From: Promethearchaeota archaeon
Lineage (GTDB): Archaea > Asgardarchaeota > Thorarchaeia > Thorarchaeales > Thorarchaeaceae
Direction of reading: 5' to 3'
Assembly (NCBI GenBank): GCA_048939765.1
Contig: JBHLPF010000020.1
Coordinates: 1-64,000 of the forward strand
Length of the DNA: 64,000 nt
Position 1 is the first letter of the stretch; every line of letters starts with the position of its first letter. The notes beneath the pieces were generated by a model. The model searched no databases, was not told the origin of the DNA, and was given only the letters and a program-made list of their open reading frames with translations. Positions 37,313 through 63,290 of this stretch are shown in pieces. The translations under genes and the position numbers were made by a program.

Positions 37313-37389
37313 ATGGAAGGGTGCTCAGGACCGCGAGAGGGACGTTTCTCGAATACTCTATCTCACCGGCGTCTACGCATCTCTCTACC
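37313..37389 (-). repeat. Dispersed ~78-bp repeat, copy A
   Basis: ATGGAAGGGTGCTCAG...AATACTCTATCTCACCG...TCTCTCTACC; abuts the stop codon at 37390. Confidence 0.85.
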
Positions 37390-38211
37390 TTAAGAGATGG
37401 ATGAATCAATAATACGCCTAACACTCAGCAGCATATTATACCCACGTGTAAGCAATTTCGTCGAATCATGACTCCAAATCTTGCTAGCATGACCCCATTT
37501 GAATTTCAATTCACCATATCTCTTAGAGAGAATCGCGTATCGCTTCTTTAGGGTCTTGGGTTGCGTCCCGGTTCCTTTGGCTTGATCGCGCAAGTCTTTG
37601 GCTAGCGTTTCGAAGGATGTGAAATCATGTGATAACGTACGAGCAACGGCATTATGTATTTCGGACGGATGATCAATTATTCTGAGTCGTGACCATCTGA
37701 ACGCCTCTGCTCCTAGACCACGTAACTCCTCACTCAGTTTCCTTGAATCCATTAGCACATACTTTTCATCGGATTCCAGTAGTCTTCGTCTTTCCTTTGA
37801 TTTCAGAACAGGAAATAAGAGGACGCCGGGTCGTAATCGAATCGAAGTTGATCTTCGAACTAATCGCTCTACTCTCTTCTTCTGGGTGGCAGTAGGATTC
37901 CTGAAACGATAGGAAACGACTGAATAAACACGTCTGTCACCTGCTTCTCCTCCATGTTCACTGACACTCGGAATCTCACGTGCTTTCTTGAAGGCAATCG
38001 TCGGTAAGTCCTGTAAAGGTGATTTCTCAGTAGAAGTTTGGCTTTGAATAAGAAATGCACCCCTTCCGACTCTAACTGCGTTCCCGAGAGATCTGAGCTT
38101 CCTTGCAGACGCTCTTATTATCTTGGCATTGCCCAGAATTACAACAAGCTGTGACTGCCCCTTCATTGTGACATTGATTGCAGTGGAATCAGATACATCT
38201 GCATCGCTCAC
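37390..38211 (-). CDS. Basic hypothetical protein, possibly PaaX-central/ChrB-N-like ferredoxin fold plus helical tail
   Basis: VVSYRF...RVERLVRR...RLRPGVLLFP pattern. Confidence 0.5.
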   Translation of the reverse strand: MSDADVSDSTAINVTMKGQSQLVVILGNAKIIRASARKLRSLGNAVRVGRGAFLIQSQTSTEKSPLQDLPTIAFKKAREIPSVSEHGGEAGDRRVYSVVSYRFRNPTATQKKRVERLVRRSTSIRLRPGVLLFPVLKSKERRRLLESDEKYVLMDSRKLSEELRGLGAEAFRWSRLRIIDHPSEIHNAVARTLSHDFTSFETLAKDLRDQAKGTGTQPKTLKKRYAILSKRYGELKFKWGHASKIWSHDSTKLLTRGYNMLLSVRRIIDSSIS

Positions 38212-38451
38212 AATACATCAGTTCTCCGAAACGACAAATAGTGACACACCTTCGCGCATGTCATATCTGCTAATATTCTTGTCTACGAGGTCTATAACCA
38301 CTTTTAACAATTAACCAACTTGATAACGGAGATTATTCGATAAATAGTGCTCATTGGCCTTTGATTCTGAGTTTGGAGCGTCATTCAGTCCATAATTTCC
38401 ATGGTCATTTTTTACTCCTTTTTTGGGCAGCATAGTCAAGAGGTGAACTTC

Positions 38452-38532
38452 ATGTGCTTTGACGATGAAGACATCTGGGCCGATGATGACGACGATTGGG
38501 ACGACGATGACTGGGATGACGATGACGAATAG
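38452..38532 (+). CDS. 26-aa poly-acidic Trp-repeat micro-peptide
   Basis: MCFDDEDIWADDDDDWDDDDWDDDDE; GAGGTGA RBS 5 nt upstream. Confidence 0.7.
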   Translation: MCFDDEDIWADDDDDWDDDDWDDDDE

Positions 38533-38606
38533 TCTGAGTCAGATCTGATTCATCAATCTCATCCGTTGTCACTTCGTGTTTCTGAATTAAAAGGAGATAA
38601 CCTAAA

Positions 38607-38681
38607 ATGGCAAAGAAGAAACCAGCTACAAAGAAGAAGAAAGCCGAACCAAAGGCGGCTCCTGCCAAGAAGAAGAAATAG
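38607..38681 (+). CDS. 24-aa Lys/Ala/Pro-rich histone-H1-like micro-peptide
   Basis: MAKKKPATKKKKAEPKAAPAKKKK; AAGGAGA RBS upstream. Confidence 0.72.
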   Translation: MAKKKPATKKKKAEPKAAPAKKKK

Positions 38682-38756
38682 CAGCATGCTGTAGGATGGG
38701 CTCATAGCTCATCCAGACTGCTGTTGAACTTCAGACTTTTTCTCATTTTGTTTTCA
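38682..38756 (+). terminator. Hairpin plus T-rich tract after the micro-peptide pair
   Basis: GGATGGGCT-cat-AGCTCATCC stem (38694-38714) with outer CAGCA/TGCTG, then TTTTTCTCATTTTGTTTT. Confidence 0.55.
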
Positions 38757-39143
38757 CATTAGTTGACGAGAGGACAGGATGCCCACCAGGTGCCATGGAA
38801 ACTTCCTCGGATAGGCCTTTTTTCCGACGCAGCGAGGAGTGTTTCATCTTCCGACCCATCATTCATTAGCGGGATAGAATCCAATGCTAAATAGGAACTC
38901 CTCCAGCCAGCATGCTGATGCAGATAATCATGGATAATAGAAAGATTGTCAACAACAGCACATAATATGAGAAGAACTCTTCGACAGTCATTGTATCATC
39001 TTTCGCGCGGTACCCTCGCTTTGGTCTTCTTTGACTCTTCCTCTACATGATATGAGCTGGTTTGACCGGAGCGGTTCTCTTTTGATTTGTGACTGTGCTC
39101 ATCGTTTCCCGAGCAGCTCCATCTTCATGTTTTCATCTATTCA

Positions 39144-39515
39144 TCATGAGCTGTAGTGTGTAGTGAATGAGCCAGAATATTCAATGGGCCGCATAGACCA
39201 TTCCGATGCGATCGCATCTGTTTGATATGACGTCTTGACCGGGGGCATCCAAGTTTGTGGGTACATCCAGATCTCAACTATACTCCCCGTGAAGCCTGCA
39301 GACTCTGGAACGCGGCCACGCAAAGTGTTCCTGTATACTGACAGCTGAATCCTATAGTTGGCTATAGTTCCATTCTTCAGGGTAACGCCTCCCTTATAGC
39401 TCCCTGATTTGAGACCATAGAATTCTTTCACATATTTAGGCACGTAGAACAAGTGGTAGTGTCCTGCACCTTTCCTCAATCTTGACAGAAATCTCAAAGG
39501 CATTCTAGACTTCAC
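39144..39515 (-). CDS. Basic hypothetical protein with an AbrB/MazE-like N-terminal pattern
   Basis: FYVPKYVKEFYGLKSG. Confidence 0.45.
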   Translation of the reverse strand: MKSRMPLRFLSRLRKGAGHYHLFYVPKYVKEFYGLKSGSYKGGVTLKNGTIANYRIQLSVYRNTLRGRVPESAGFTGSIVEIWMYPQTWMPPVKTSYQTDAIASEWSMRPIEYSGSFTTHYSS

Positions 39516-39553
39516 CTCACTCTCAGCTCTGAATCAGACAGTATCAGAACTAG

Positions 39554-39604
39554 TGTATACATATGTAAACAAAATGTATATAAATATGTCTATCTTTGTA
39601 TACA
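39554..39604. promoter_or_regulatory. Phased TGTAWACA boxes in a divergent promoter
   Basis: Boxes at 39554, 39564, 39575, (39587), 39597. Confidence 0.7.
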
Positions 39605-39637
39605 TACGTAGTTTCGTTCGAAAAGGATGCTGACACC

Positions 39638-39799
39638 ATGACTGAAGATATGATGATACGAGTTCCGCGTGAGCTCAAAAACCGTTTCGAGAATCTCGCA
39701 AAGAAGAACTCGTGGAAAGGCTTTGCTTCCTTCGTAAGAGAGGCAATACGATTCCATCTAGATCACCATGAAGAGATTGAGAGAGGCAACGGCAGCTAG
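39638..39799 (+). CDS. Ribbon-helix-helix (CopG/Arc-like) regulator
   Basis: MMIRVPRELKNRFENLAKK...FASFVREAIR. Confidence 0.82.
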   Translation: MTEDMMIRVPRELKNRFENLAKKNSWKGFASFVREAIRFHLDHHEEIERGNGS

Positions 39800-39997
39800 T
39801 CTTCTTCCAAAGAGGCAAGAGGAGAGGCTGATTTGCACCTCTTGGTTCATTCATCCAAGTATAGGTGCATCCCTCCAATTTCCATAGAGGGCACATTGTC
39901 CACTTCCTGCCGCGGCTGTGATTCGCATTGTTTTGAATCGATGTGAAGTCGATAGTGAATTGTGGCAGCAATCAATTGAATAGCACATACTTATCGA

Positions 39998-40058
39998 TGT
40001 AAACAAGTTTATAACCAAAAGAATACATTATGTATACAAATGTATACTATTGCATACA
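39998..40058. promoter_or_regulatory. Phased TGTAWACA boxes upstream of the PARP-zinc-finger gene
   Basis: Boxes at 39998, 40031, 40041, 40051. Confidence 0.7.
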
Positions 40059-40087
40059 ATACGGTGGTCGAAGTGTTGAATAGCAAT

Positions 40088-40813
40088 ATGCATCAGACTA
40101 ATGCCAATCAAGAAGGTAAGCACCAGAGAATCGAGAGAGGCACGAATTGGGTCGAGATTGAAACCGAATGGGCCTATTGGATTGACTCCGAGTCATTCAA
40201 CCTCAAACGGTTAAAGAAACGTGCCCCTGTAGGTGCAATCATTATTGTAAAGACCAGAAAGAAACTTGATGACGAAAGAACATACGTGGATGACTCATTT
40301 GGTTTGATTGTGGAAAATGGAATTGAGGATCTTACGAAGAGAGAAGCAAGCGACATTCTTGCCAAGCAAGCATTGGAATATATGAGATGGTCGAAACATT
40401 GGCCGCCTTTCGTGGAACTCAAGGATATTCAAAAGTCAGGAGATGTGAAGGTCATCTTTAAGCCCAGTGAATACGATTCCTTCATTCTCCTTATGACCCG
40501 CAACATGATTGGTGCTGATCCAGCCGAGTTCCTCAGTAAACTCAAGAAACATGAAGCACCAAAGGAACCTTCATGGAGAGTTGAAACTGCTAAATCGGGG
40601 AGGTCAAGATGTCGTTCATGTCGAGATTACATATTTGAGGGCAGATTCCGAATTGGTGAACCGTATCTCTATGAGGGGAACCTTTCCTACAGATGGTATC
40701 ACCCAAGATGCGTTGCAACAAGGATAGATCTGAATGAGCTTGAGAGTCTAGATGGATACAGCAAGCTCAGACCTGATGAAAAACAACGGTTGAAGCATCT
40801 ATTAGCACAGTAG
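40088..40813 (+). CDS. Protein with a C-terminal PARP-type zinc finger
   Basis: VETAKSGRSRCRSC...RIG...WYHPRC...LDGYSKLRPDEKQRL. Confidence 0.85.
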   Translation: MHQTNANQEGKHQRIERGTNWVEIETEWAYWIDSESFNLKRLKKRAPVGAIIIVKTRKKLDDERTYVDDSFGLIVENGIEDLTKREASDILAKQALEYMRWSKHWPPFVELKDIQKSGDVKVIFKPSEYDSFILLMTRNMIGADPAEFLSKLKKHEAPKEPSWRVETAKSGRSRCRSCRDYIFEGRFRIGEPYLYEGNLSYRWYHPRCVATRIDLNELESLDGYSKLRPDEKQRLKHLLAQ

Positions 40814-40834
40814 GAACTTGGAGTATGAATGTCG

Positions 40835-40859
40835 ATGAATCGCCGGTTTGGCGACTCAT
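40835..40859. terminator. Hairpin between convergent genes
   Basis: ATGAATCGCC-ggttt-GGCGACTCAT (one mismatch). Confidence 0.45.
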
Positions 40860-40884
40860 TATTTCGACAATCCTGTAATGAGAG

Positions 40885-41418
40885 CTAGAGGTCCCCAGAA
40901 ACTCCACTGACGACGCGTGCAGCTCCGGCTATGATGAAAGCAATCGAAGCAAACAGGGCAAGTGTGATGAAACCAAGCCCAGGTATAATTAGAATTAGAA
41001 CAGGTATTGCCGCTCCAATAGCCCCCACAAGAAGGTGAAAGCCCCGGGTCCTCATGCTCATATCGGCCTCACTATAGAAGATTATAATCCTAGCAACACC
41101 TGAGAAGAAAAGAGCTATTGCCACAATTGAGATTAGGAGATTAATTCCAAAGGCAGGAAAGACCAATACTATGAGAGCAAGGGTTACTGACAGGAAACCT
41201 GTGGTAACATGTATTGCTCTGTTTGTTCGTTTGAGACTCGTCACGACTACACCCTTGGAAATCCTTGCTATTCCAATAAGAACAAGGCCAACTGCAAAGA
41301 TAAGAAGAATGATAGTTTCAGCGAGTGTTCCACCAAGAATCACCCATGAACCCAATATGATTAGGATCAGACCTACAATCAGATCTAATACTCGAATAGA
41401 GTTGGGACTAGAAGACAT
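40885..41418 (-). CDS. HdeD/DUF308-like membrane protein
   Basis: Repeated G-x-x-x-I...G-x-A-R TM hairpins. Confidence 0.75.
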   Translation of the reverse strand: MSSSPNSIRVLDLIVGLILIILGSWVILGGTLAETIILLIFAVGLVLIGIARISKGVVVTSLKRTNRAIHVTTGFLSVTLALIVLVFPAFGINLLISIVAIALFFSGVARIIIFYSEADMSMRTRGFHLLVGAIGAAIPVLILIIPGLGFITLALFASIAFIIAGAARVVSGVSGDL

Positions 41419-41615
41419 AGAATTCTAGCAAGAAATACATCATATCTTTCTTTTCCTTTGCACATCTTAATTCATGAATCAGAATGACAGCTCAATGGAT
41501 AGTGTTCTTCATGCCATGCTCGTAAGGAGGGCCGTTCAGAAGCAATTGATCTGTTGGGTGCAATGCTGGAATTGATTGAGTGAATTGAGTGGTTCTGCTT
41601 GGTCAACATTGCGAA

Positions 41616-41849
41616 TTAGACGCGTTGATTAAGTTCTATTGTGTCACGGTCCTGAATTTCATTCTCAGGCGTTGCTAGAGCATTATTGATGTAGCAATCT
41701 CCAACATCACTCATTTTCAATCCCAATCGATGCAATAGGTCTTGAAAATGCTCCCCGTCCACATGGTTGCACATCAGAATATTATTGGCATCAGGAATGC
41801 TGTTCTTGACAGTTTCTTTGAGATTGCCATAGAGATAAACTTCAATCAT
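41616..41849 (-). CDS. ThiS/MoaD-like beta-grasp protein without C-terminal GG
   Basis: MIEVYLYGNL...DLLHRLGL...YINN...IQDRDTIEL. Confidence 0.6.
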   Translation of the reverse strand: MIEVYLYGNLKETVKNSIPDANNILMCNHVDGEHFQDLLHRLGLKMSDVGDCYINNALATPENEIQDRDTIELNQRV

Positions 41850-42050
41850 ATTTCTAGATACGTTTCTCAGAAGATAAGGAGTTCGCAAGAGGATTTCTCA
41901 GAATGAAGAGAACGCTCAATAGGTGAAAGAAGGTTGGATCTTAATACCCTATCCCGTCGCCGCCGTACCCATTTCGATTTCCAACTTCTGTGCAAGAACT
42001 TCGCTCTGATGTCTACACTTTACGTCACACGGAAGTACATGAGAAGACTT

Positions 42051-42094
42051 TTATGAATACTGATTCATAAATTGTATCGAATCATGATTCATTA
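42051..42094. promoter_or_regulatory. TTATGAAT-N4-ATTCATAA palindrome plus a degenerate second copy upstream of cdhAB
   Basis: TTATGAATACTGATTCATAA 42051-42070; TATCGAATCATGATTCATTA 42075-42094. Confidence 0.8.
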
Positions 42095-42359
42095 ATTTGG
42101 TGAGATTTGTTGGCGCGAATTCCTGTGATAGTGTCCGTGCTTGAAGAGGGCAATTCAGGAAAGATTGTGACAGAACCGGGAAACCTGACTCAGGAATTCG
42201 ACAAGGTATATGATAAGCAGAGGGCCATCATCGATGGGATTCCAAGTATTGGCTGCCCTGTCATTGCCATAGTCAGGGGTGTCTGGGGGGACTAGCGGTG
42301 CTATATGCCAGTGTCAAGGGAATCCATGCGACTGCAAGAAGAACAGGATTTGTATAAGT

Positions 42360-44702
42360 ATGAAAAAGAAAGCACACTTCAAAGCTGACGAAGCGAAGAC
42401 CGCTTTGGGCATCTTCAAAGGCCTTGAGATCAGAATTGGCCAAATTGTGGATGACGAATGGGATGAGCCAATGGGGCCGACCCCAATGCCGAGTCCAACC
42501 GGTCTCCGTTCTTGGGATCACAAACTCTTGTCCAAATACCAACCATCCTACATGCCTTATTGCCAAGTCTGTTGTCTATGTACATTTGGCAAATGTGACC
42601 TCTCTGGTGACAAACGAGGCGCTTGTGGGATTGACCTGAAAGGGCAACAGGCAAGGATTGTGCTTGCAGCAGCCAATATAGGCAATGCAGCACATTTGGC
42701 GCATGCAAGACACCTGGTTGACCACCTAATTGATGAATTCGGTCCTCAGACCGAACTTATTCAAGGGCCTGGCACTGAGATACATGCACCTGTTTCACGG
42801 TTGGCAACTGGGATGCGACCAAGAACTCTCGAGGATGCAAGCATCATCCTTGACTACTGCGAGAGCCAGCTAGCACACACTCTCTCAGCAGTACATACTG
42901 GCCAAGAGGGAAGCTGGTTGGACTTTGAGAGCAAGGTTCTCCATGTTGGTATGATTGACCAAATAAGCATGGAGATTGCAGACCTTGTTCAGATTGCCAC
43001 TTTGGATTTTCCAAAAGCCGACCCAGAAGCACCACTTGTTGACTCAGGCATAGGTATGATGGATACCAGTAAGGCTATCGTTCTAACCATTGGTCATAAC
43101 ATTGTACCAGCAGCATCAATAACTGACTATATTACCGAAAAGAAACTGGGAGGGCAAGTCGAGGTAGGTGGGATGTGCTGCACTGCTTGGGACATCACAC
43201 GACGTGATCCAAGCGCCAAGGTTGTTGGGCCAATCTCATGGCAACTTAGATACATACGAAGCGGCAAGGCGGATGTGGTGGTAGTTGACGAACAATGTGT
43301 GCGGACTGATGTTGTCAGTGAGGCTCAGAAAGTAAAATCGCCAGTCATTTCGACCAGCGACAAGGCCGTTATGGGGCTGCCTGACAGATCTGATGACTCG
43401 ATTGACTCGATTGTGGAGGAACTCGTATCAGGGAAAATACCTGGCGCATATATCCATGACCACCATAAGGTTGGAGCAGTGGCAACCAAAGTAGCCATTG
43501 CTGTCATGCCAAAGAGAAGGAAGATGAAATTCTTCCCGACGAAGAAGCAGATCCAGAAGATGGCCCAAGATTGCAAGAAGTGCAGCGAGTGCATTCGGTC
43601 ATGTCCGAATAATCAGCCAATCATGGAAGCTGTTCTGGCGGCACAGACAGGGAATTTCGAGCCATTACGTGATGTCTATCGCAACTGCATTGGATGTGCA
43701 CGATGCGAATCTGCATGTCCCAATGGCTATGATTTGCACAGTTGGATGGTTGTTGCAGCAGAAGAAGATTGCAAGAATGAAACCTACAAGCTTCGAACAG
43801 GCAGAGGTGCAATCCAGGACACTGAGATCCGAAGTGTTGGACAACCCATCGTCTTTGGCGAGATACCTGGAGTGATTGCTCATGTTGGCTGCGCCAACTA
43901 TCCAGGCGGAGGGGAAGACGTCTATGAGATGGCTGAGGAGTTCGCAAAGAGAAGATACATCATATTGACCTCTGGATGTGCGGCGATGTCAGCAGGCTCT
44001 GTAAGAGATGAGAATGGACAATCAATCTACGAGCGACGTGGTGGTGAATTTGATGCGGGTTGCGTAGTCAATGTCGGTTCATGCGTTTCCAATCCCCATA
44101 TCGCCGGTGCAGCAATAAAGATTGCAGCGATTTTTGCCAAGAGGAACTTACGAGGCAACTACGCAGAGATTGCCGACTATATCCACAACCGTGTGGGGGC
44201 AGTAGGGATATCTTGGGGTGCCATGTCACAGAAGGCGGCCTCAATAGCGTCGGGGTTCTGGAGACTTGGTGTTCCTGTGATTGTGGGACCGCATGGCTCA
44301 AAATATCGCAGGATGCTGCTTGGTAAAGCGGAGGATGAGGAGGCTTGGACTGTCTACGATGCGCGCACTGGAGAACGCGTAGTAACTGCGCCGGGTCCTG
44401 AACACCTCTTCTATGCCGCCGAGACTGTTGCGGAAGCCAATGTGATGACAGCAAAGCTCTGTATTAGGCCCAATGACACAAGCAAAGGACGAGCCATCAA
44501 GCTGAGCCACTACATTGACATCCACGAGAACTCGTATGGCTTCTTCCCGGAGGATGTCTGGAGATACATCCGTCGTGAAGCGGATATACCAATCACATTG
44601 AAGGACAAGATTCTGGCTCAAATGAAGGAGAACAAATGGAAGGAGAGGACAATTCCAGATCCAACGCTTCTGAAGGAGCTAGTCGTGGGAGGTGGCAAAT
44701 AA
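42360..44702 (+). CDS. cdhA: CO dehydrogenase/acetyl-CoA synthase alpha subunit
   Basis: MGPTPMP, CCLCTFGKC, GHN, CCT, DEQC, two extra 4Fe-4S motifs, GCAN, SGCA, GSCVSN. Confidence 0.96.
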   Translation: MKKKAHFKADEAKTALGIFKGLEIRIGQIVDDEWDEPMGPTPMPSPTGLRSWDHKLLSKYQPSYMPYCQVCCLCTFGKCDLSGDKRGACGIDLKGQQARIVLAAANIGNAAHLAHARHLVDHLIDEFGPQTELIQGPGTEIHAPVSRLATGMRPRTLEDASIILDYCESQLAHTLSAVHTGQEGSWLDFESKVLHVGMIDQISMEIADLVQIATLDFPKADPEAPLVDSGIGMMDTSKAIVLTIGHNIVPAASITDYITEKKLGGQVEVGGMCCTAWDITRRDPSAKVVGPISWQLRYIRSGKADVVVVDEQCVRTDVVSEAQKVKSPVISTSDKAVMGLPDRSDDSIDSIVEELVSGKIPGAYIHDHHKVGAVATKVAIAVMPKRRKMKFFPTKKQIQKMAQDCKKCSECIRSCPNNQPIMEAVLAAQTGNFEPLRDVYRNCIGCARCESACPNGYDLHSWMVVAAEEDCKNETYKLRTGRGAIQDTEIRSVGQPIVFGEIPGVIAHVGCANYPGGGEDVYEMAEEFAKRRYIILTSGCAAMSAGSVRDENGQSIYERRGGEFDAGCVVNVGSCVSNPHIAGAAIKIAAIFAKRNLRGNYAEIADYIHNRVGAVGISWGAMSQKAASIASGFWRLGVPVIVGPHGSKYRRMLLGKAEDEEAWTVYDARTGERVVTAPGPEHLFYAAETVAEANVMTAKLCIRPNDTSKGRAIKLSHYIDIHENSYGFFPEDVWRYIRREADIPITLKDKILAQMKENKWKERTIPDPTLLKELVVGGGK

Positions 44703-45244
44703 TGGTGATGAGACCGGTACCCTGGCAGACAGGAGAGATCTGCGGCCCTGATAGTGCAAAGTCACTCAACAAAGCCGCCCAACTCAAAAGAGCCTTCACA
44801 AAATCAAAGAAACCCCTATTGATTGTGGGATCAGATGCGGTTAACATGACACATGGGAAGGGCAACATGATTGACTATGCAATAGCCCTTTCAGAGGCTG
44901 GTAAGATACCGATTGTCGCGACTGGAGGCGCAATCAAGGCTTTCATTGAGAGGGGTTTTGAGGGCTGCAAATCAATGGGTGCAATGGAATTGGCAAACTA
45001 CCTTCAAGATGAGTCGTGGCCAGGCCCCCATGGAAAGGGTCCTCAAGATTTGATTCTGATTTATGGCATCCCATACTATATGCAATGGACGCTGCTATCT
45101 GCCGTCATGAACTTCGGATCTCACCTGACAAAGATTTCTTTGGGGCGCTATTATCAACCACATGCAGACTGGTCATTCCCGAATATGAAAGAGAACCAAT
45201 GGCACGATATTCTAGATGAGATTCTAGAGTTCGTGCGTGACTGA
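44702..45244 (+). CDS. cdhB: CODH/ACS epsilon subunit
   Basis: PWQ, KKPLLIVG, YYQPHADWSFPN; start overlaps the cdhA stop. Confidence 0.92.
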   Translation: MVMRPVPWQTGEICGPDSAKSLNKAAQLKRAFTKSKKPLLIVGSDAVNMTHGKGNMIDYAIALSEAGKIPIVATGGAIKAFIERGFEGCKSMGAMELANYLQDESWPGPHGKGPQDLILIYGIPYYMQWTLLSAVMNFGSHLTKISLGRYYQPHADWSFPNMKENQWHDILDEILEFVRD

Positions 45245-45345
45245 AGGATAGAGAACTGTTAATTCACTTTGGATTTGATTGGAGGAAAATCTCCAAGATA
45301 GCCCCGGCCAAATATGAGATCAATTCATAATTCAAGCATAAGATG

Positions 45346-45420
45346 ATGAAAGGTGCTCAGGAATGGGGGATGGCTAATCCCCCAAAACACTGTAGTGACG
45401 CCACCTCTGCTTCCCTGCCC
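45346..45420 (-). repeat. Dispersed repeat, divergent copy B
   Basis: ATGAAAGGTGCTCAGGAATG...CCCCAAAACACT...CTTCCCTGCCC. Confidence 0.7.
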
Positions 45421-45571
45421 TGAGGCAATTCTCACCACAATACATCCCAACGGGTTATTTTGCAGACCACTTGCAGATTGAGGCAATAGAGATTCAGTCT
45501 ACCTATGAAATGGTCAAGAATGCACCAATAGTTTCATTGTAGAAAGAAAAACAGAAGGGAGCGTGTGCCCC

Positions 45572-47275: not shown

Positions 47276-47351
47276 TATCTCCTTATATTTCGCTGAGAGA
47301 TTAGAAGCAGGGAACCAACTAAAAGACTATGAATACTCATTTTTCTGGAAA

Positions 47352-47375
47352 CAATGACAACAATATTTGTCATTG
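47352..47375. promoter_or_regulatory. CAATGACAA-N6-TTGTCATTG palindrome upstream of the mtd fusion
   Basis: Perfect 9-bp arms; related copy at 52119-52138. Confidence 0.7.
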
Positions 47376-47400
47376 CGACTAGTCACATATCACACAAAGA

Positions 47401-52138: not shown

Positions 52139-52476
52139 GGCACAGGATGCTTCTTATCAAGACATGTCATAGGTGAACCGAAGAAGCCCAGCGTATTGAC
52201 GCAATTATTCCAAATCATGGTCTGAAATCTTGCTCCGAGGAGAGAGATTTTCTCTTATCTTTTGATTATCTATAAAAACCGCAAAGTGAAGAGGTTTCCA
52301 AATGACCTCAAGAAACTGGTTCAAATGATTGAAAGGGCTCGGAATTAAGTTCAGTAGCTGATTTGGATACAATGAAAAGGGCATAGAGCGACTCAAAGAA
52401 TCAAGAAGTGTGGCTCTAATGGTGAGCTATATTAATCAACAAATGACTTTCATCCCAGGAGGACCTGGTCGATACT

Positions 52477-53154: not shown

Positions 53155-53257
53155 TTGTGGAGTGAGAGTCAGCTTACGAGAGCTCGTTTTTGGTAACTTC
53201 CATTCCAAAAAGCCTTTGTTAGAGTCATATCCTGATGCAATAAGCTGTGATGCATTC

Positions 53258-55078: not shown

Positions 55079-55198
55079 AATGAAAGAAAAGAACTGTTGT
55101 GATTGGACACGCGACTCAGTTGATCTTCCATCATTCTCGAGTACATGGTTCAATCTGAAAGTATTTAGTCATGAACCTGGAGCCCCTGCTGTCAAGGA

Positions 55199-56494
55199 TT
55201 GTTACTAATATTGTCAGAAACCCCAATAGAACTAGACAATGCAAATTCTCCTAGCCTAGACTATGAAGGAGACGTACTTACTGTACTGAACCTCTCTCTG
55301 GTGACGTTCCTAATCATCATTGGTCTGAGCATGGTCGCTCCAATTCTACCAACATATGCGGAGAGCTTTCAAGTTTCATACACACTCGTTGGTTTCGTTG
55401 TGTCATCCTTTGCGGTAATGCGAATGCTTCTTGATCTGCCTGCGGGTCTTGTTTCAAGGAGGTTTGATAAGAAGAAAATCATGATGTCAGGCCTGGTCCT
55501 CATCTCTACCTCATCCGTGCTAGCTGGTTTTGCTCCCAACTATTCTACTCTTGTTATTGCTCGGATGATCGAGGGAGCAGGTTCAGCTCTGTATGTGACC
55601 ACAGCAACAGTGTTCCTTGCTCAAATCTCTGGAGAGGAGAAGAGAGGACAATGGATGAGTCTTTACATGGGAATGTTACTTCTAGGCTCCATCTTTGGAC
55701 CTACATTTGGGGGTATTATTGCAGACACGTATGATATTCGTGCGCCATTCTTCGCCTACGCAATAGTAACAGGCATTAGTTTGATTCCAACATTTGTATT
55801 GCCAAAGCTGCCTAATTCTGGAAATGGGTCTTCTCTTTCCAGACATCAAATCCTTCATGACATGCGGGAAGTTCTCTCCACGCCTTCGTTCCTCTTGGTG
55901 ACCTTTGCGGTCTTTACAACGTTCTTTCTGCGGACAGGGGTGAGAACTACACTAGTACCCCTATATGCGGCGAATAACCTAGGGCTGGACTCAGGTGCCA
56001 TCGGCCTTATCCTAACTATTGGGGGAATAACAACAGCTCTTACAATAACCCCGATGGGAAGTGTTTCGGATAGAATTGGTAGGAAGATACCCCTAGCATT
56101 ATGCCTTATTCTGAGTGCAGGAGTTACTTTGATAATTCCGTTTTCCACAGACCTTTTCGCATTATCTTTTGTTATGGCAATATATGGAGCAGTCATTGGG
56201 TTCTCAGGTCCTAGCGCGGCCTATGTGACCGATGTATCACCGCAGGACAAATTGGAGATATCCATGGGACTCTATCGTATGATCAGTGATTTTGGTTTCG
56301 TCATGGGACCTCTTCTACTAGGTTTCTTGGCAGACGCGACAGCCATGCCAGTAGTCGGAGCGCCTCACTCAGGCCTAATTGGGATAGTTCCTTTCATGGC
56401 GGCATCAATTATCCTCATTGTAGCATTCTTTGTACTGGCAAAAGCTGATGATCCAGCAAAGGAAAGAAACCATTTGAAGAACAGGGAGCTATAG
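55199..56494 (+). CDS. MFS transporter
   Basis: About 12 TM segments; GSVSDRIGRK, ARMIEG, GPTFGG. Confidence 0.9.
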   Translation: MLLILSETPIELDNANSPSLDYEGDVLTVLNLSLVTFLIIIGLSMVAPILPTYAESFQVSYTLVGFVVSSFAVMRMLLDLPAGLVSRRFDKKKIMMSGLVLISTSSVLAGFAPNYSTLVIARMIEGAGSALYVTTATVFLAQISGEEKRGQWMSLYMGMLLLGSIFGPTFGGIIADTYDIRAPFFAYAIVTGISLIPTFVLPKLPNSGNGSSLSRHQILHDMREVLSTPSFLLVTFAVFTTFFLRTGVRTTLVPLYAANNLGLDSGAIGLILTIGGITTALTITPMGSVSDRIGRKIPLALCLILSAGVTLIIPFSTDLFALSFVMAIYGAVIGFSGPSAAYVTDVSPQDKLEISMGLYRMISDFGFVMGPLLLGFLADATAMPVVGAPHSGLIGIVPFMAASIILIVAFFVLAKADDPAKERNHLKNREL

Positions 56495-56535
56495 ATTCCC
56501 AAGACGCAGAAGTGTCCCTTTGTTACAATATGGTG

Positions 56536-56613
56536 AGAGAAAGGGTACTCGGCTATGTGAAAAGGGTGTGTCCCCATTACTCTATCGTACCGCCGCCAAC
56601 ACTTCTCTCTAAC
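56536..56613 (-). repeat. Dispersed repeat, copy C
   Basis: GAAAGGGTACTCGGCTATGTGAAAAGGG...TACTCTATC...CTTCTCTCTAAC. Confidence 0.85.
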
Positions 56614-56720
56614 TTAGAAGGCAATGGTGATTCATCTGCAGCTTCCGCTACGAATACCTTGTTAAAGAATCAAAGAAATTGTAGGCAGAATAGACGCACT
56701 TCAATTCAGAGGGCCAATAA

Positions 56721-57311
56721 ATGAATAGGATGAATCCTAAGGTTGATGCATATTTGAGCAAAGCCAAAGAGTGGCAGGAAGAATTCGAGAAACTGAGAAT
56801 GATCATTCTTGACTGTGGACTGACTGAGGAATTGAAGTGGGGCAAGCCTTGCTACATGTTTCAAAAAAGTAACATAGCTGTAATTCAGGGATTCAAGGAA
56901 TACTGTGCGCTTCTGTTTTTCAAAGGTGCCTTGTTAAAAGATGCCAATGGTATTCTAATCAAACCAGGGGAGAATACGCAGGCGGGGCGCCAGATTCGGT
57001 TCACCAATTCTGGAGAAATAGTCGAGATGAAACCCATCTTGAAGGCCTATATTCATGAAGCCATTGAAGTGGAAAAAGCGGGTTTGAAAGTGAGTTTTAA
57101 ACCGACTACAGAATTCATAATTCCTGACGAATTTCAAGATAAATTAGATGAAATCCCTGATTTGAAAACTGCTTTTGATACATTGACACCGGGACGGCAA
57201 AGAGCATACATTCTTTATTTTTCTCAACCCAAACAATCGAAAACCCGGAAGTCAAGGGTTGAAAAATATATGCAGCAAATTCTCGATGGAAAGGGACTAA
57301 ATGATCGGTGA
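56721..57311 (+). CDS. YdeI/OmpD-associated (DUF1801) family protein
   Basis: EELKWGKPCY, FFKGALLKD, LTPGRQRAY. Confidence 0.92.
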   Translation: MNRMNPKVDAYLSKAKEWQEEFEKLRMIILDCGLTEELKWGKPCYMFQKSNIAVIQGFKEYCALLFFKGALLKDANGILIKPGENTQAGRQIRFTNSGEIVEMKPILKAYIHEAIEVEKAGLKVSFKPTTEFIIPDEFQDKLDEIPDLKTAFDTLTPGRQRAYILYFSQPKQSKTRKSRVEKYMQQILDGKGLNDR

Positions 57312-57412
57312 GTTTCTCAAAATTCTTGTGATATCTTGTCATTTTATGATGCCAATTTATAAGGCTGAGCAAAGAATGTCAAAAGCTAATTGACGGATTT
57401 GAGGAAGAAGCG

Positions 57413-58372
57413 ATGTATTCTGAGGCTCATGTCATTGAAACTGATAATTTGAGTAAGAACTATGGCGACATTCATGCGCTGAACAAACTCAACCTCAAGG
57501 TGCCTAAGAATTCTATTTTTGCATTCTTGGGTCCCAATGGTGCTGGCAAAACAACAACAATCAAACTTCTTCTTGGTCTCACAAGGCCTACAGACGGAAG
57601 AGCAAGTGTGCTTGGTCAGAATGTTGTATCTGAAAATGACAAAGTCAGAAGAAGAGTAGGGTATCTGGCGCAGCAGCCCAAGTTCTACAAGGAACTTACT
57701 GCATGGGAAACGATGAAGTTTGCTGCCCGCTTGTTTTTCAAGGGACCCGACGACAAGATAAATGAGAGAATTGAATATCTGCTGCAGGTTGTCGATCTTG
57801 AAGATAAATCGGATCGACCGATAGAAGGATTCTCTGGGGGAGAGATGCAGCGTTTGGGGATTGCGCAGGCGCAAATCAACTTCCCTGAATTACTGATTTT
57901 AGACGAACCTGCTGCTGGGCTTGACCCAGAGGGAAGGGAGCAGGTCCTGAAGATAATGGAGTCGCTTCGTACAGAATCAACCATATTCTATAGTACTCAC
58001 ATACTTGATGATGTCCAAAGAGTTAGCGATAGAGTGGCTATTCTGAATAAGGGAAACCTGATTGCACAAGCACCTATTGGAGAACTCCTTTCTGGAACTG
58101 AGGGAATAGCCTATACACTCATTCTTGATGGGGATTCACAAAAAGCCTACAGCAGACTGTCAGCTGAACCTTGGGTCACATCTATCTCTGAAAGAAAAGA
58201 GCGAGGCCAGACTCATTGGGTTGTGGATGTCAATGATGACTCCACAGCAAAGAAGCGACTTCTTCGAACGGTGCTTGCTGATGATGGAGTTGATGTTGTA
58301 GACTTTGGCCTTAAGGAGTATGAACTTGAAGAGATTTTCATGAAACTAGTGGAGGATGACAGCAATGACTGA
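57413..58372 (+). CDS. ABC-2 type exporter ATPase
   Basis: GPNGAGKT, FSGGE, LILDEP, STH. Confidence 0.92.
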   Translation: MYSEAHVIETDNLSKNYGDIHALNKLNLKVPKNSIFAFLGPNGAGKTTTIKLLLGLTRPTDGRASVLGQNVVSENDKVRRRVGYLAQQPKFYKELTAWETMKFAARLFFKGPDDKINERIEYLLQVVDLEDKSDRPIEGFSGGEMQRLGIAQAQINFPELLILDEPAAGLDPEGREQVLKIMESLRTESTIFYSTHILDDVQRVSDRVAILNKGNLIAQAPIGELLSGTEGIAYTLILDGDSQKAYSRLSAEPWVTSISERKERGQTHWVVDVNDDSTAKKRLLRTVLADDGVDVVDFGLKEYELEEIFMKLVEDDSND

Positions 58373-59108
58373 GAAAGAGTTGTTCGAGCCAACCACTGAC
58401 AAGGGATGGAGAATGGGCTTTTCGGCACTAATGAGGAAGGAGTTGATAGCATGGTTTGGCACTTCTACTTGGTGGCAACAGACTCTCCTTTGGAGCCTCA
58501 TTCTCGGTCTCTTTGGGTCTGCAGGAATTCAAGACCCAGAGGCGGGTATAATCATATTCTTTTTCATGGCCACTATTTTCCCAGGAATTGCCACAATAAT
58601 AATCACAACTGAAGTAATTCTTGAAGAGAAACGTTCTGGATCGGCTGCATGGGTTCTCTCAAAGCCGGTATCAAGGGAGGCATTCCTACTGCCCAAGTTC
58701 ATTGGCCTTGCCATAGCCTTCTCAGTTTCAATGGTATTCCTACCTGGATTGGTAGCCTATCTGATTTACTTCGCTTTCGGAGCGGCACCGGACATCTTTC
58801 TTTTTATTCTGTCCCTCGGGCCATTGGCGCTCTGGCAGATGTTCTTATCCTTTCTGACATTGTGTATGGGGACTTTCTTTGATGATACCGGTCCTGTTAT
58901 GGCAGTACCCTTTGCCTTTCTGTTCATAGGAATCAACCTTGGTCAGCATCCTCTTATCGGACCATACGGCCCATGGGGTCTATTCCAGAATTCAATCAGC
59001 TTAGTGACTGGCGGAGATTTTCCATACACTCCCATTATTGTCACAGTGATTGTGTTGCTTGTGTTAATTGCACTGGCAATTTGGAGATTCAGAAGGCACG
59101 AGTTCTAG
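58356..59108 (+). CDS. ABC-2 type exporter permease
   Basis: KEL, EKRSG...LSKPVSR...KF, 6 TM segments. Confidence 0.88.
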   Translation: MTAMTEKELFEPTTDKGWRMGFSALMRKELIAWFGTSTWWQQTLLWSLILGLFGSAGIQDPEAGIIIFFFMATIFPGIATIIITTEVILEEKRSGSAAWVLSKPVSREAFLLPKFIGLAIAFSVSMVFLPGLVAYLIYFAFGAAPDIFLFILSLGPLALWQMFLSFLTLCMGTFFDDTGPVMAVPFAFLFIGINLGQHPLIGPYGPWGLFQNSISLVTGGDFPYTPIIVTVIVLLVLIALAIWRFRRHEF

Positions 59109-59233
59109 ATGGTGTCGCAAATATCACTTAATGAAGGGGTGCTCAATAGAGGAAGGAAAGAGAAGGTTCCCTGTTCATCCGACACCGTCAGGATCCGCTT
59201 CATACCCATCTAGTGGTGATTTGAATAAGTATG

Positions 59234-59395
59234 CTATGAAAGTGAGAGTTTGGATGATTCTGTTGCGTGTCGAGTTATTTCAAGATTGCATGATTTGTGT
59301 TTGATACACCATTGCTCACATTTCTTTGCCCAGTCTTCATCTTCATACATCAGATGACATTCCTCACATTCATAGAGCCCGTAAATTTCCTTCAC
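59234..59395 (-). CDS. Small Cys-rich putative metal-binding protein (53 aa), not in the ORF track
   Basis: MKEIYGLYECEECHLMYEDEDWAKKCEQWCIKHKSCNLEITRHATESSKLSLS; paralog of 9854-10015. Confidence 0.8.
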   Translation of the reverse strand: MKEIYGLYECEECHLMYEDEDWAKKCEQWCIKHKSCNLEITRHATESSKLSLS

Positions 59396-59461: not shown

Positions 59462-59541
59462 GAAATGAAAGGGCACTCAGCAATGTGAGAAGGGCATTTC
59501 CCCAATACTCTATCTCACCGCCATCTACACTTCTCTCTACC
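59462..59541 (-). repeat. Dispersed repeat, copy D
   Basis: Abuts the arsR stop codon at 59542. Confidence 0.9.
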
Positions 59542-59838
59542 CTATGGACTGACCATCTCTTGAGCAAGCCTACGTGTCTGCTCTATCATTCTCTCAACTC
59601 TCTTATCGCTAATTCTGTAGAGTTTCCTGACACCATCCTTTCGTACGTGAAGTATTCCAGCTCTGACCATTTGAGTCAGATAAGCAGAAACTGTGGATTG
59701 AGACAGACCAATTCGCGGAAATATATCACATTGACATTGCTCACCGTCCAAGAGAAAGTCAACGATATCTAGCCGAACAGGGTTGCCAAGCGCTTTGTGA
59801 AATTCCACTCTCCATTTATTCTCCTTATTCATGTTCAT
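59542..59838 (-). CDS. arsR: ArsR/SmtB family regulator
   Basis: KALGNPVRLDI, EQCQCD, SQSTVS. Confidence 0.85.
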   Translation of the reverse strand: MNMNKENKWRVEFHKALGNPVRLDIVDFLLDGEQCQCDIFPRIGLSQSTVSAYLTQMVRAGILHVRKDGVRKLYRISDKRVERMIEQTRRLAQEMVSP

Positions 59839-59911
59839 CCGGTATCTCTCTCCATATCTTCATTCCAGCATGTCACCGCCAATAAACCGCTTTGGCTTGA
59901 CTTATTCGAAA

Positions 59912-61003
59912 CTACATAGGTTTTCCTTTCCAATAGTTTCTTCTTTGCAGGTACTTACCCAGGTAAACAATACCTAGCATCACTGGAACTTCCCAAAACA
60001 GTCCCATTGTAGTCCCTAGCGCAGCAATGGATCCAACGCCATAAATTGCGATTGCTGTCGCTATAGCAATCTCAAAATGACTTGAAGAGCCAATGATGAC
60101 AGTAATCACACCTTCTCGGTATGCGAGACCTGCTATTCGAGTCACTAAAAGATTATAGCCAACCACTATGGCAAATCCAATCAAGAGCGGGACTGATACA
60201 AGAACTAGGAGATCGGGATTATCCAGCATGACTCTCCCGTTCAAGGAGAAGAGTACCACAAGAGTGGTCAGGAGAGCTACTAAAGCCAATTTGCCTACAG
60301 CTGGGCGATACTTCTCATTGAACCAATCTATCCCTTTCCAAGGTACAAGTGATTTCCTGGTAATGATTCCGAGCATCAGGGGTATTCCTATGAATACAAG
60401 TACTGAAACAAACAACGCCCATCGATCAATAGGTATGGCCGAGATGCCTGTGAATAGTGCAACAATAGGTGCATAGAGGACTATTATTGTGGCTGTGTTC
60501 AAGGTTGTATTGACAACGTTTTGCTCCTGATTTCCTTCAGCCAAATAGCCCCAGACTAGAACCATAGCTGTGCAGGGACTTGACGAAAGCAGAATTATGG
60601 CTACTATCAGTTGTGCGTTTCCAGCCAAAAAGAGGTTCGCAAGAACAAATCCAACAATGGGGGCAATAATCCAATTCGAAAATAGTGTAAGAATGATTGG
60701 CCTTGGGTTTTTGCCGAGCTTCTTCAACTCGGAGGCTTGAATGTTGAGCATTGCTGGGTACATCATGAGGAAAAGGCAAATTCCGATTGGCACCGAGATA
60801 TTGCCAAGTTTCCATGAATCAATCGCTTCTCCTATGCCCGGTATGGTCAATGAAAGGAGAATTCCAGCAATCATGCAGATTGCAACCCAGAGGGGGAGAT
60901 ACTTCTCAAAGGTGCTAAGTTCTCTCTCTGGTTCAACCAGCTCTTCGACACTGGTATGAGGGACTGACTCATGTTGAATGTCCTCGTTCATATTTCGCAC
61001 CAA
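59912..61003 (-). CDS. acr3: ACR3 family arsenite efflux pump
   Basis: FEKYLPLWV, MMYP, NW, PCTAMV, FEIAIA, EVPVML. Confidence 0.92.
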   Translation of the reverse strand: MVRNMNEDIQHESVPHTSVEELVEPERELSTFEKYLPLWVAICMIAGILLSLTIPGIGEAIDSWKLGNISVPIGICLFLMMYPAMLNIQASELKKLGKNPRPIILTLFSNWIIAPIVGFVLANLFLAGNAQLIVAIILLSSSPCTAMVLVWGYLAEGNQEQNVVNTTLNTATIIVLYAPIVALFTGISAIPIDRWALFVSVLVFIGIPLMLGIITRKSLVPWKGIDWFNEKYRPAVGKLALVALLTTLVVLFSLNGRVMLDNPDLLVLVSVPLLIGFAIVVGYNLLVTRIAGLAYREGVITVIIGSSSHFEIAIATAIAIYGVGSIAALGTTMGLFWEVPVMLGIVYLGKYLQRRNYWKGKPM

Positions 61004-61037: not shown

Positions 61038-61117
61038 ATATAAATAAATGGACTGGATTGTTAGTTGTGAAACTATATGGCAATATTTCGGTTGCCACGC
61101 TAACACCAACCTGCTGC

Positions 61118-61197
61118 AAAATGAAAGGGTGCTCAGCAATGTGAAATGGGCATTTCCCCAATACTCTATCTCACCGCCGCCTCTACTTCTCTCTACC
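61118..61197 (-). repeat. Dispersed repeat, copy E
   Basis: About 9 differences from copy D over 80 nt. Confidence 0.9.
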
Positions 61198-61234
61198 TTA
61201 GAAGGTGATTTTCATTCTGGTCTTTGCTCATGCT

Positions 61235-62371
61235 TTAATCATTTTTCAAATTGTGTGGATAGCTGGTCAATACTAGAGGCTTATCTTTTCCTATAACAAC
61301 CGTATCTTCCAACCTTACTCCCCATTGCTTCGTATAGATTCCGCAATTGCCGATAGCAATAGGTGTGTTCTCAGCAAGAGGAGGTGGGGCCTTTTCGCCA
61401 TGGAAGAATGCATGACCAGGAGGCAATGGAGCTTCTTCGAAATTAATCCCTATTCCATGTATGGGAGGGCCAAAGATATTCTCTCCATAGCCAGCGTCCT
61501 GAATAACATTATGGAGTGTATTTTCAAGCTCTACCATTCCCACTCCTGCGACTGATTTTGTAGTTGTCTTCAGCAATGCTTCCAAATATACATCATATGC
61601 CTTGACCTGTTCAGCGGTTGGTTCTCCAATATAGGCTATTCGGCAGATATCAGATGAATAATTGTTTACAATGGGATGAAGATCAATTAAAATGACATCT
61701 CCATCTTGCACTTTGCGATTTGTTGGAATGCCATGGGCGATTCGTGTCCGCACCCCACTCGCCACATAGGATCGCCAAAACCCTTCGGCACCAGCCTGAC
61801 GCATGGCATATTCACCTTCTCCTGCAATCTGGCTCTCGGTCATTCCAACCTCTACTGAAGTCATTGCGGCCTCCATTCCTACATCAGCAACTCTCCCTGC
61901 TTCTTTCATCAATTCTATCTCGAAAGAATCTTTCACTGTCCTCAGTTTAGAGAGAATATTCGTGCAATCTGCGACTGTCACAGCCTTCGGCTTTGCATGG
62001 GGATGTGTCAACATCTTCATCATTGAACTGGTTAGGAATGTGTGTTCCAATCCAACAACACCCTTACTCACTCCAAACTGTCTGAAGAAGTCTGCAATCG
62101 AATGGATCATTCCTACTTCATCCTCGAAGGACAAGATGTGGTCAAAATGTGCTAGATCGGTCACATCCTCGATATCTGTTTGTGGAACTCCCATTGCAAC
62201 CTGTTTGTCACTGTTAATCATTGTAAAGGCACATAGACGCCCATCTCCAGTGAAGTAATACATGTTTGAAGGCTTTGTTAACAATAGGACATCTAGTCCC
62301 TCCTTCTCCATAGCTCTAGCACAATTATCAACACGTTGGTCGAAAATGCTCCTATCCATACTGGCTTTCAA
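61235..62371 (-). CDS. M24 (Xaa-Pro) peptidase family protein
   Basis: R-x-V-K...EI, H, D...YSSD, HGIG, GVRLED; the usual metal-ligand Glu region reads IGN. Confidence 0.82.
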   Translation of the reverse strand: MKASMDRSIFDQRVDNCARAMEKEGLDVLLLTKPSNMYYFTGDGRLCAFTMINSDKQVAMGVPQTDIEDVTDLAHFDHILSFEDEVGMIHSIADFFRQFGVSKGVVGLEHTFLTSSMMKMLTHPHAKPKAVTVADCTNILSKLRTVKDSFEIELMKEAGRVADVGMEAAMTSVEVGMTESQIAGEGEYAMRQAGAEGFWRSYVASGVRTRIAHGIPTNRKVQDGDVILIDLHPIVNNYSSDICRIAYIGEPTAEQVKAYDVYLEALLKTTTKSVAGVGMVELENTLHNVIQDAGYGENIFGPPIHGIGINFEEAPLPPGHAFFHGEKAPPPLAENTPIAIGNCGIYTKQWGVRLEDTVVIGKDKPLVLTSYPHNLKND

Positions 62372-62597
62372 TTCTAGTCACCTGGCTCTCCAAATCATGC
62401 ACTTGAAAAACCCGGCTCATAAGTCTAATCACCAACTAGCCCAGACCCATAATGATGTTACAGGATCCTCGACTCCCTTCTATTAGCCGATCCAAGACTG
62501 CCTAGGTGGATGCAAGGATATCCTCATTGAAGTAGTTCATAATAGGAATCTACTGATTCACAAGAGGATTGGCATTCAATTTGATATAATAGGTTTG

Positions 62598-62675
62598 GAA
62601 AATGAAAGGGTGCTCAGCAATGTGAGATGGGCATTTCCCCAATACTTTATCTCACCGCCGCCGCTTCTCTCTGCC
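62598..62675 (-). repeat. Dispersed repeat, copy F
   Basis: 7 bp downstream of the GNAT stop; 3-nt deletion relative to copy E. Confidence 0.9.
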
Positions 62676-62682
62676 TGCAGAG

Positions 62683-63183
62683 CTAGAGATGTTTCTCCAT
62701 CCAGACATCAAAACCCCAAGGATTTCGAACCCTATATGCCAGTGTGTATCCTAGCTTCTGGTAAAAGCTAATAGCCCACTCTGCACCATTATCTGTGACC
62801 AATCTCACCTTTCTGAACCCCATTTCCCTCGCCACAGTTTCCAAGTGAAGAACAAGGGCTGTTCCTATCCCTCGCCTCTGATACTCTGGCAATACATAGA
62901 CCCATCGAATTCGGCTGTTCATATCATCCTCGATACTTAGTGCTGCCACTGCTACGACCTGCTTCTGGTGTCTATGCACATAGAATGTCATTTTCTCCAG
63001 AAATGCATCCAGCTCTTCTTGGGTTAGAATAGGTTCTTTGAAGTATGGCTTCGGGATTATCCGACCAAACGCTTCCCAATTGGCCCTATTAATCACAAGT
63101 AGTATATTCTGGAGATCCTCTGATTTTGCCTTTTCAATCCTAATGCTTGATTCATTCAAGCCAATCCACACTAACAAATACAC
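62683..63183 (-). CDS. GNAT acetyltransferase
   Basis: VYVLPEYQRRGIG, AISFYQKLGY. Confidence 0.9.
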   Translation of the reverse strand: MYLLVWIGLNESSIRIEKAKSEDLQNILLVINRANWEAFGRIIPKPYFKEPILTQEELDAFLEKMTFYVHRHQKQVVAVAALSIEDDMNSRIRWVYVLPEYQRRGIGTALVLHLETVAREMGFRKVRLVTDNGAEWAISFYQKLGYTLAYRVRNPWGFDVWMEKHL

Positions 63184-63256
63184 ATTGTGGGTTTTGAATT
63201 ATGGGTTTTCATCTCTTCACTGCAGTCTTCGTTTCAGAGGAAAGCTCATGAATTTA

Positions 63257-63290
63257 GAAAATGAAGGGTGCTCAGCAATGGGTAATCCCC
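63257..63290 (-). repeat. Dispersed repeat, truncated copy G
   Basis: GAAAATGAAGGGTGCTCAGCAATGGGTAATCCCC. Confidence 0.7.

Follow-up and report, generated by a model that had tools for sequence, protein, structure and literature searches.

The first 64,000 nucleotides of contig JBHLPF010000020.1 of a Promethearchaeota archaeon from the family Thorarchaeaceae (GenBank assembly GCA_048939765.1; this whole stretch is called the window below) contain a family of short repeats that separate groups of accessory genes. We found that these repeats are almost certainly orphan copies of the 3' trailer of the 16S ribosomal RNA (rRNA) gene, and that they punctuate an island of genes that begins at the 3' end of this gene, identity and island architecture being judged jointly. 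The window holds nearly all of the island (~27 kb), and the repeat array, the founding trailer and the 16S gene are present on one contig. The 16S gene is followed by the genuine trailer and then by modules and trailer copies in alternation (Table 1).

The copies in the window were found with a repeat finder and with an nhmmer profile made from six full copies. Seven copies were recovered where a first-pass annotation of this DNA had placed them, every one on the minus strand as it had claimed (profile and repeat-finder starts 37313, 45347, 56537, 59463, 61119, 62600 and, for the truncated copy, ~63257), and a 28-nt core was seen three times versus 0 expected in shuffles. The profile also returned an eighth copy at contig positions 64174-64259, just outside the window end, and no copy on the remaining 107 contigs of the 3.37-Mb source genome (G000, 88.5% complete; the other G-numbers used here are relatives). 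Distances to stop codons were as previously described. The stops of a 273-aa open reading frame (ORF) and of arsR lie inside the repeat start (TAA/TAG of ...TAAGGTAGAG / ...TAGGGTAGAG), the stop of the GNAT gene lies ~6 nt upstream of a copy, and that of the peptidase gene 37 nt upstream.

The only 16S gene of the source genome, located by cmsearch at contig positions 64272-65773 on the minus strand, begins 272 nt past the window end. The last bases of the gene are ...GGAUCACCUCCU, and the repeat follows at once. The eighth copy stands directly after the 16S end and is therefore the genuine trailer (contig 64174-64271), the seven copies in the window being orphans. This trailer is ~100 nt long and ends in CUGAGCACCCUUUCAUUU, and each window copy could be aligned to it with 77-96% identity. 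Co-folding paired ~70 nt of the trailer with the 16S leader, for example leader GCUCAGCAGUGUG with trailer CACAUUGCUGAGC, and the duplex reached -67.7 kcal/mol versus -43.4 +/- 4.5 kcal/mol in shuffles (z -5.4). In archaea, the processing stem of pre-16S rRNA is a helix of leader and trailer with a bulge-helix-bulge site. The founding copy agrees with this arrangement both in its position directly 3' of the 16S gene and in its pairing with the leader; however, one trailer per 16S gene would be expected, whereas here at least seven extra orphans without a leader partner are found downstream. Thus, the repeat is not a free-standing new element or a new RNA family, as had been considered, but the 3' trailer of a gene lying just beyond the window. 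Similarly, the strand-specific G-U pairing, for which the fold of a single-strand recombination site had been one suggestion, arises because the trailer natively pairs with the leader in the processing stem.

With regard to the fold of the copies themselves, the first-pass annotation had described a central hairpin that varies while keeping its pairing. The three quoted variants were present in the named copies, but family-wide the covariation of intramolecular helices was weak over 57 copies. Because the pair counts barely exceeded those of shuffles (two alternative folds), no conserved fold is claimed for the orphan copies. RNAalifold returned no structure on the mixed alignment. In the comparison with Rfam that had been suggested, no family reached the gathering threshold in the window and none matched the repeat-bearing loci even at E <= 10. 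An origin of the repeat from a tRNA or a transfer-messenger RNA (tmRNA) gene was also considered and rejected, as neither was present in the window.

The copies differed in how well they match the founding trailer. In the source genome, the four copies nearest the 16S gene matched the genuine trailer at 90-96% identity, the three distal ones at 77-81%. The fit to the leader was kept by the copies at 62600, 61119 and 59463 (z -3.9 to -6.5) and not by the distal three (z -1.2 to -1.7). The same two tiers were observed in G005, with distal copies across both genomes at 77-87% identity. One orphan copy has an orthologue in G015, from which it differs at ~10 of 85 positions within a surrounding block that is 95.6% identical. 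Orphan copy 5 deserves separate mention: it includes the final 42 nt of the 16S gene (56626-56664), and ~11 nt around the 16S end, the anti-Shine-Dalgarno CCUCCU among them, have been deleted. The same boundary inside the 16S gene, at position -43 (TAACAAGG...), was found in G015, G005 and G002, and three times in G024, which belongs to another genus. As an observation in its own right, insertions of ~30 nt lie within the last 60 nt of the 16S gene at L066:5650-5860 (G011 C2), in G007 C162 and in G017 C19, one of them directly after GUCGUAAC, near the -43 boundary of the orphan 16S-end copies; these may be mini-introns or expansion segments.

Of 16 genomes of the same genus, 14 carried the repeat, as did one other genus, and it was clustered in all of them. 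No contig with mixed orientation was observed for 156 copies on 41 contigs, and the spacing between copies (median 1.5 kb, range 333-17205 bp) agrees with the earlier statement that this is not an array of clustered regularly interspaced short palindromic repeats (CRISPR). The genome-wide count that had been proposed as a check thus confines the family to one contig in the source genome and to a single orientation per contig elsewhere. The array follows the assembled 16S 3' end in G005, G016, G009, G018 and G011. In G024, 34 nt follow the gene before the 16S contig stops; another contig has an array in which three 16S-end copies occur.

Gene order in the island was variable. Blocks were reordered between G000 and G015, G005 and G004, with the block edges at repeats; the Acr3/ArsR genes, the M24 peptidase, YdeI, the major facilitator superfamily (MFS) transporter and the pair of carbon monoxide dehydrogenase (CODH) genes all occupied different places in the latter three genomes. 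The view that the repeats punctuate modules like cassettes is supported by these breakpoints, and a fixed gene order with random orientation, which would speak against it, was not what we observed, since order varies and orientation is uniform. The first gene after the genuine trailer was different in every genome examined (an unannotated ORF, a flavin reductase, an acyltransferase, a 1395-aa protein, and a mer operon preceded by a 221-aa ORF). In G011, the orphans and the resident trailer are of different sequence types, so that import from other lineages is implied. Among the ORFs of the arrays, 60% were co-oriented with the rRNA gene and 40% antisense. The most common Pfam families in 133 clusters of array proteins were PIN, radical SAM, ferredoxin domains, Rce1-like, GNAT, methyltransferases, ABC-2 and HMA, and the cargo, including PIN and ParE toxins, GNATs, methyltransferases and metal resistance genes, resembles that of other cassette islands.

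Variants of the island were also found in public metagenomes. In Logan contigs from runs X5 and X6, which belong to other studies, position 63266 was joined in register to contig position 64182, so that the module nearest the genuine trailer (M1) was precisely absent; both ends of this join correspond to trailer coordinate ~+90. M1 is the newest module. In X9 contigs, the YdeI end and the genuine trailer were directly joined. Contigs of a second sample bridged two junctions without a mismatch, and they therefore argue against chimeric assembly. A metagenome scan gave only 10 loci, all of them further arrays and none with an obvious enzyme, and no match to the 3' core of the trailer was obtained when viral contigs were scanned for it.

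A second array of the same kind was found behind the 23S rRNA gene, which is unlinked to the 16S gene in the source genome (C41:36305-39388, plus strand). Its own trailer, unrelated in sequence to that of the 16S gene, is repeated within the stretch behind the gene (C41:39389-41073) at C41:40788-40878 (1.4 kb downstream, 89% identity) and again at C84:736-820. Of 15 congeners, 14 likewise had a reiterated 23S trailer; the copies were clustered and shared one orientation wherever a contig had at least two of them (four copies on G005 C106, three on G002 C49 and three on G015 C141).

As to how the array arose, we lean on the whole towards an additive island that was built and shuffled by recombination in copies of the rRNA tail, a process that would be driven by homology and would need no dedicated integrase. 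Incoming DNA, either a relative's fragment with the conserved rRNA 3' end, the trailer and new genes, or a circle with one trailer copy, would recombine with the resident rRNA end or trailer by a homology-driven route that could be one-ended or two-ended. The intact trailer would stay beside the rRNA gene, and the displaced copy, often 5'-shortened, would be moved distally, where it would lose its fit to the leader and decay. Ordinary (RadA-type) recombination could afterwards use the co-oriented copies as portable homology, resulting in deletion, excision and reshuffling of modules. The 3' end was kept in 146 of the 156 copies and the 5' truncation points were continuous over model positions 27-63; such a combination is expected if rRNA-anchored DNA brings an intact trailer and joins imprecisely in the resident one. 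The in-register presence/absence form of M1 is, likewise, the product expected of recombination between direct repeats.

Several points weigh against this explanation. With contigs as the only material, neither a recombination event nor an intermediate was observed. At ~85 nt and 77-96% identity, the repeats are short for efficient homologous recombination. Identity falls in two tiers instead of declining smoothly, and the bit scores in G015 are not monotonic. The complete relative G004 has no 16S gene detectable by cmsearch, so anchoring is uncheckable there. The source genome is 88.5% complete, and a trans-acting recombinase could be encoded in the missing part. Finally, the recurrent -43 boundary inside the 16S gene, seen in two genera, and the near-universal 3' core of ~25 nt would also fit a site-specific enzyme.

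Such an enzyme, namely a dedicated site-specific recombinase or nuclease that uses the 3' core of the trailer, inserts units of module plus trailer and acts in trans or from a separate element, appears possible but rather unlikely to us. It would account for the sharp end of homology at the 3' ~25 nt (CAYUGYUGAGCACCCUUUCAUUUU) that nearly all copies share, as well as for the strict co-orientation and the cassette-sized spacing, both of which are like those of integrons, and an ORF with a TnpB domain indeed lies within the G011 array. However, the integron-like gene-capture enzyme suggested by the first-pass annotation was not found. PF00589, the tyrosine recombinase family, had no match in G000, G015 and G005, and its only match in G004 was ~80 kb from the array; Cas1 had no match in five genomes, G000 included; no recombinase was among the 25 most common Pfam families of the 133 array-protein clusters, nor did any recombinase family recur in the arrays; and Pfam scans of the module proteins revealed no transposase in the array. 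In G000, the single clear TnpB is encoded on contig C12, and its surroundings contain no 16S-like sequence; elsewhere in this genome, the 16S end and the trailer had no matches above chance. Near the TnpB-like gene of the G011 C2 array (L066:16674-18440, plus strand; 588 aa, with a Cas12f/TnpB-type TNB domain), no antisense match of at least 12 nt to the 16S end or trailer was present. An RNA-guided nuclease aimed at the 16S end is thus unsupported in the genomes examined (G000 and G011), this candidate not having been tested broadly. The G011 ORF is one of ~14 TnpB-like ORFs scattered over that genome, which suggests an active family like that of an insertion sequence (IS). In addition, since the unrelated 16S and 23S trailers are both reiterated, one sequence-specific enzyme for both would not be expected, and the ragged 5' ends of the copies, as well as the change of the gene beside the genuine trailer from genome to genome, also speak against it. 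If true, however, the system would be a functional analogue of the integron. A bolder form of this idea, in which Thorarchaeota possess a dedicated gene-capture machinery that recognizes the 3' core of both 16S and 23S trailers, inserts and excises units of module plus trailer and forms an integrase-independent counterpart of the integron, we regard as unlikely.

It is distinctly improbable, in our opinion, that the copies are kept for a role at the RNA level, for example as a terminator, an insulator or a processing signal behind a strongly transcribed rRNA gene, with the growth of the array as a by-product. The founding copy is a real RNA element of the processing stem, copies end in a U-rich tract, most array ORFs are co-oriented with the rRNA gene with several stops in or just before copies, and three proximal orphans could still pair with the leader. 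On the other hand, the distal orphans have no leader complementarity, the orthologous orphan of G000 and G015 has diverged despite its well-conserved surroundings, a substantial part of the ORFs is antisense, some copies (e.g. the one at 56537) have no co-oriented gene upstream, covariation is weak, and the reshuffling would be left unexplained. The earlier suggestion of a motif in a 3' untranslated region or terminator was half right for the founding copy only. A repetitive extragenic palindromic (REP) sequence, a miniature inverted-repeat transposable element (MITE), an element derived from an IS or an assembly artefact caused by a repeat shared within the metagenome would agree with the short, structured and intergenic nature of the units, and contigs of metagenome-assembled genomes (MAGs) can be chimeric at repeats. 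These possibilities are very improbable: the copies are confined to one locus instead of being dispersed, with no terminal inverted repeats and no transposase in the array, so that the former comparison with REP and MITE elements does not hold; moreover, the copies differ mutually, so assembly passes through them, junctions are bridged by contigs of a second sample, and the same architecture was found in more than 15 independent genomes, one of them single-contig. The reading as a canonical integron, or as a cluster of attC sites lacking integrase (CALIN), is even less credible. The cassette-like architecture and cargo, with co-oriented sites between variable cassettes, would be in line with it, and integrons, mostly CALINs, have been reported to be enriched in Asgard MAGs (Ghaly et al., 2022; PMC9668308). 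No RYYYAAC...GTTRRRY pair was found over any copy, however, and not even a single core was present in the copies or within 15 nt on either strand, in agreement with the first-pass annotation; IntI was not found either, and the repeat is demonstrably an rRNA trailer.

Table 1. Orphan trailer copies and gene modules of the island, listed from the 16S gene outwards. Identities are from local alignment to the genuine trailer.
Feature	Positions	Strand	Description
Orphan copy 1	63259..63289	-	5'-truncated, last ~23-33 nt kept; trailer +76..+98; 96% (22/23)
Orphan copy 2	62600..62676	-	Trailer +19..+98; 90% over 80 nt; leader pairing kept, z -4.6
Orphan copy 3	61119..61206	-	Trailer +11..+98; 94% over 88 nt; leader duplex -76.6 kcal/mol, z -6.5
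Orphan copy 4	59462..59544	-	Trailer +17..+99; 93% over 83 nt; z -3.9; arsR stop in first bases
Orphan copy 5	56537..56664	-	16S end (56626-56664) fused to trailer copy (56537-56620); 80% over 137 nt
Orphan copy 6	45346..45416	-	Diverged; 77% over 47 nt; leader match lost, z -1.2; orthologue in G015 at 23949
Orphan copy 7	37313..37396	-	Distal array end; 81% over 80 nt; z -1.5; near-identical to G002 C50:8449
M1	63386..64000, on to contig 64126	+ (antisense to array)	ORF of ~246 aa, nearest the genuine trailer; no Pfam match
M2	62683..63183	-	GNAT acetyltransferase (PF00583, 1.7e-19)
M3	61235..62371	-	M24 (prolidase-type) peptidase (PF00557, 4e-41); G015 counterpart elsewhere in array
M4	59542..61003	-	Acr3-type arsenite carrier (SBF) and ArsR; other array positions in G004, G005, G015
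M5	56721..59304	+ (antisense)	YdeI/OmdA, ABC ATPase, ABC-2 permease, small ORF
M6	45417..56536	mixed	~11 kb; Mtd-like dehydrogenase, [NiFe]-hydrogenase large/small subunit-like, wHTH-HdrA-MvhD fusion
M6, further genes	45417..56536	mixed	Membrane protein, alpha/beta hydrolase, MFS transporter
M7	37397..45345	mixed	~8 kb; 273-aa unannotated protein, zf-PARP protein, DUF308 protein, 90-aa protein
M7, further genes	37397..45345	mixed	CODH/prismane-family protein, CO_dh epsilon; blocks scattered in G015, G005

The contents assigned to the modules by the first-pass annotation were largely confirmed, as Pfam returned YdeI, the ABC ATPase and the ABC-2 permease, ArsR and the Acr3-type SBF carrier, the M24 peptidase and GNAT. 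The supposed nuclease module (M1) is a different case, because it had no Pfam match and its label rests only on a D...ExK-like motif (LDLIL ... ALEFK) seen by eye. Besides itself, the M1 ORF has only three distant homologues, and no 16S trailer was detectable beside the gene on the two homologue contigs examined. Immediately behind the gene, ~130 nt of non-coding sequence are conserved between two homologue contigs (loci L088 and L090), which come from two assemblies.

Some other genes of the window were also of interest. In M6, the product of 49463-52120 (minus strand) combines an N-terminal winged helix (DUF7347/HTH_20), an HdrA-like body and a C-terminal MvhD domain; the genes for the hydrogenase small and large subunit-like proteins follow it, and the array block to which they belong (45238-52290) is the one with 95.6% identity to G015. 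In M7, 40040-40813 (plus strand) encodes a 257-aa archaeal protein with a C-terminal PARP/DNA-ligase-type zinc finger (PF00645, 3e-13), a domain best known in eukaryotic DNA-nick sensors. Directly distal to the last trailer copy, two successive paralogous gene sets at 28191-37215 (minus strand), comprising 303/313-aa and 182-aa proteins and large Fer4/HdrA-like proteins, have the appearance of a redox gene cluster duplicated in tandem. Three paralogous small ORFs (74-83 aa) are located at 23852-27002 (plus strand) in a duplication of ~1.13 kb (25654-25866 versus 26784-26996, 78-84% identity).

With respect to known systems, the island is one of the known additive kind in a new variant, in which an rRNA trailer instead of a tRNA is the platform. 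In additive islands at stable-RNA genes, an integrase in or beside the island is usual, although not universal. An example is fGI1 of 'Ca. Actinomarinales', an additive flexible genomic island at a tRNA 3' end in which each cassette ends in a direct repeat of a piece of the tRNA (PMC7771536). In common with tRNA/tmRNA islands, the Thorarchaeaceae island is anchored to a stable-RNA gene at its 3' end, and its cassettes, each with one to few genes, are closed by a direct repeat of a piece of that gene or its flank; its contents differ among close relatives at the same site, and cassettes are shared across genera. It differs from them in that the target is the trailer of an rRNA processing stem (16S and 23S), the repeats are long (~85-140 nt), and no integrase was found in the island or in the 88.5%-complete genome. 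A similarity to sedentary chromosomal integrons and CALINs, archaeal ones included, lies in the co-oriented array of small, mostly promoter-less-looking cassettes whose order is shuffled among relatives and whose cargo is rich in toxin-antitoxin, acetyltransferase and resistance genes; in contrast, no IntI, attC cores or attI were found here, the array starts at an rRNA gene and its repeat is the trailer. In the Asgard superphylum, mobile DNA is already known to land at the 3' flank of the 16S gene, as HeimM2 and HeimV2 of Ca. Heimdallarchaeum lie exactly behind the single 16S gene (Wu et al., 2022; PMC8813620). These are, however, single elements of 8 kb and 44 kb with a homing-endonuclease-like gene, for which neither an array of trailer copies nor cassette shuffling was described. 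Full-text literature searches returned no paper on arrays of rRNA-trailer copies.

The results have a practical side, in that orphan 16S ends and trailers break assemblies at rRNA genes and can be mistaken for new RNA families or attC-like sites. The uptake of foreign genes by Asgard archaea, to which eukaryotes are more closely related than to any other known group, is a matter of current interest. In this case, the two rRNA genes, which rank among the best-conserved sequences of any genome, act as fixed docking points behind which accessory genes, including genes for metal resistance, toxin-antitoxin systems, transporters and energy metabolism, gather and pass from one lineage to another. 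If homology alone drives the process, a universally conserved gene with a portable tail of ~85 nt would suffice for an integron-like platform without an integrase; if an enzyme is involved, it would represent a new kind of recombination system.

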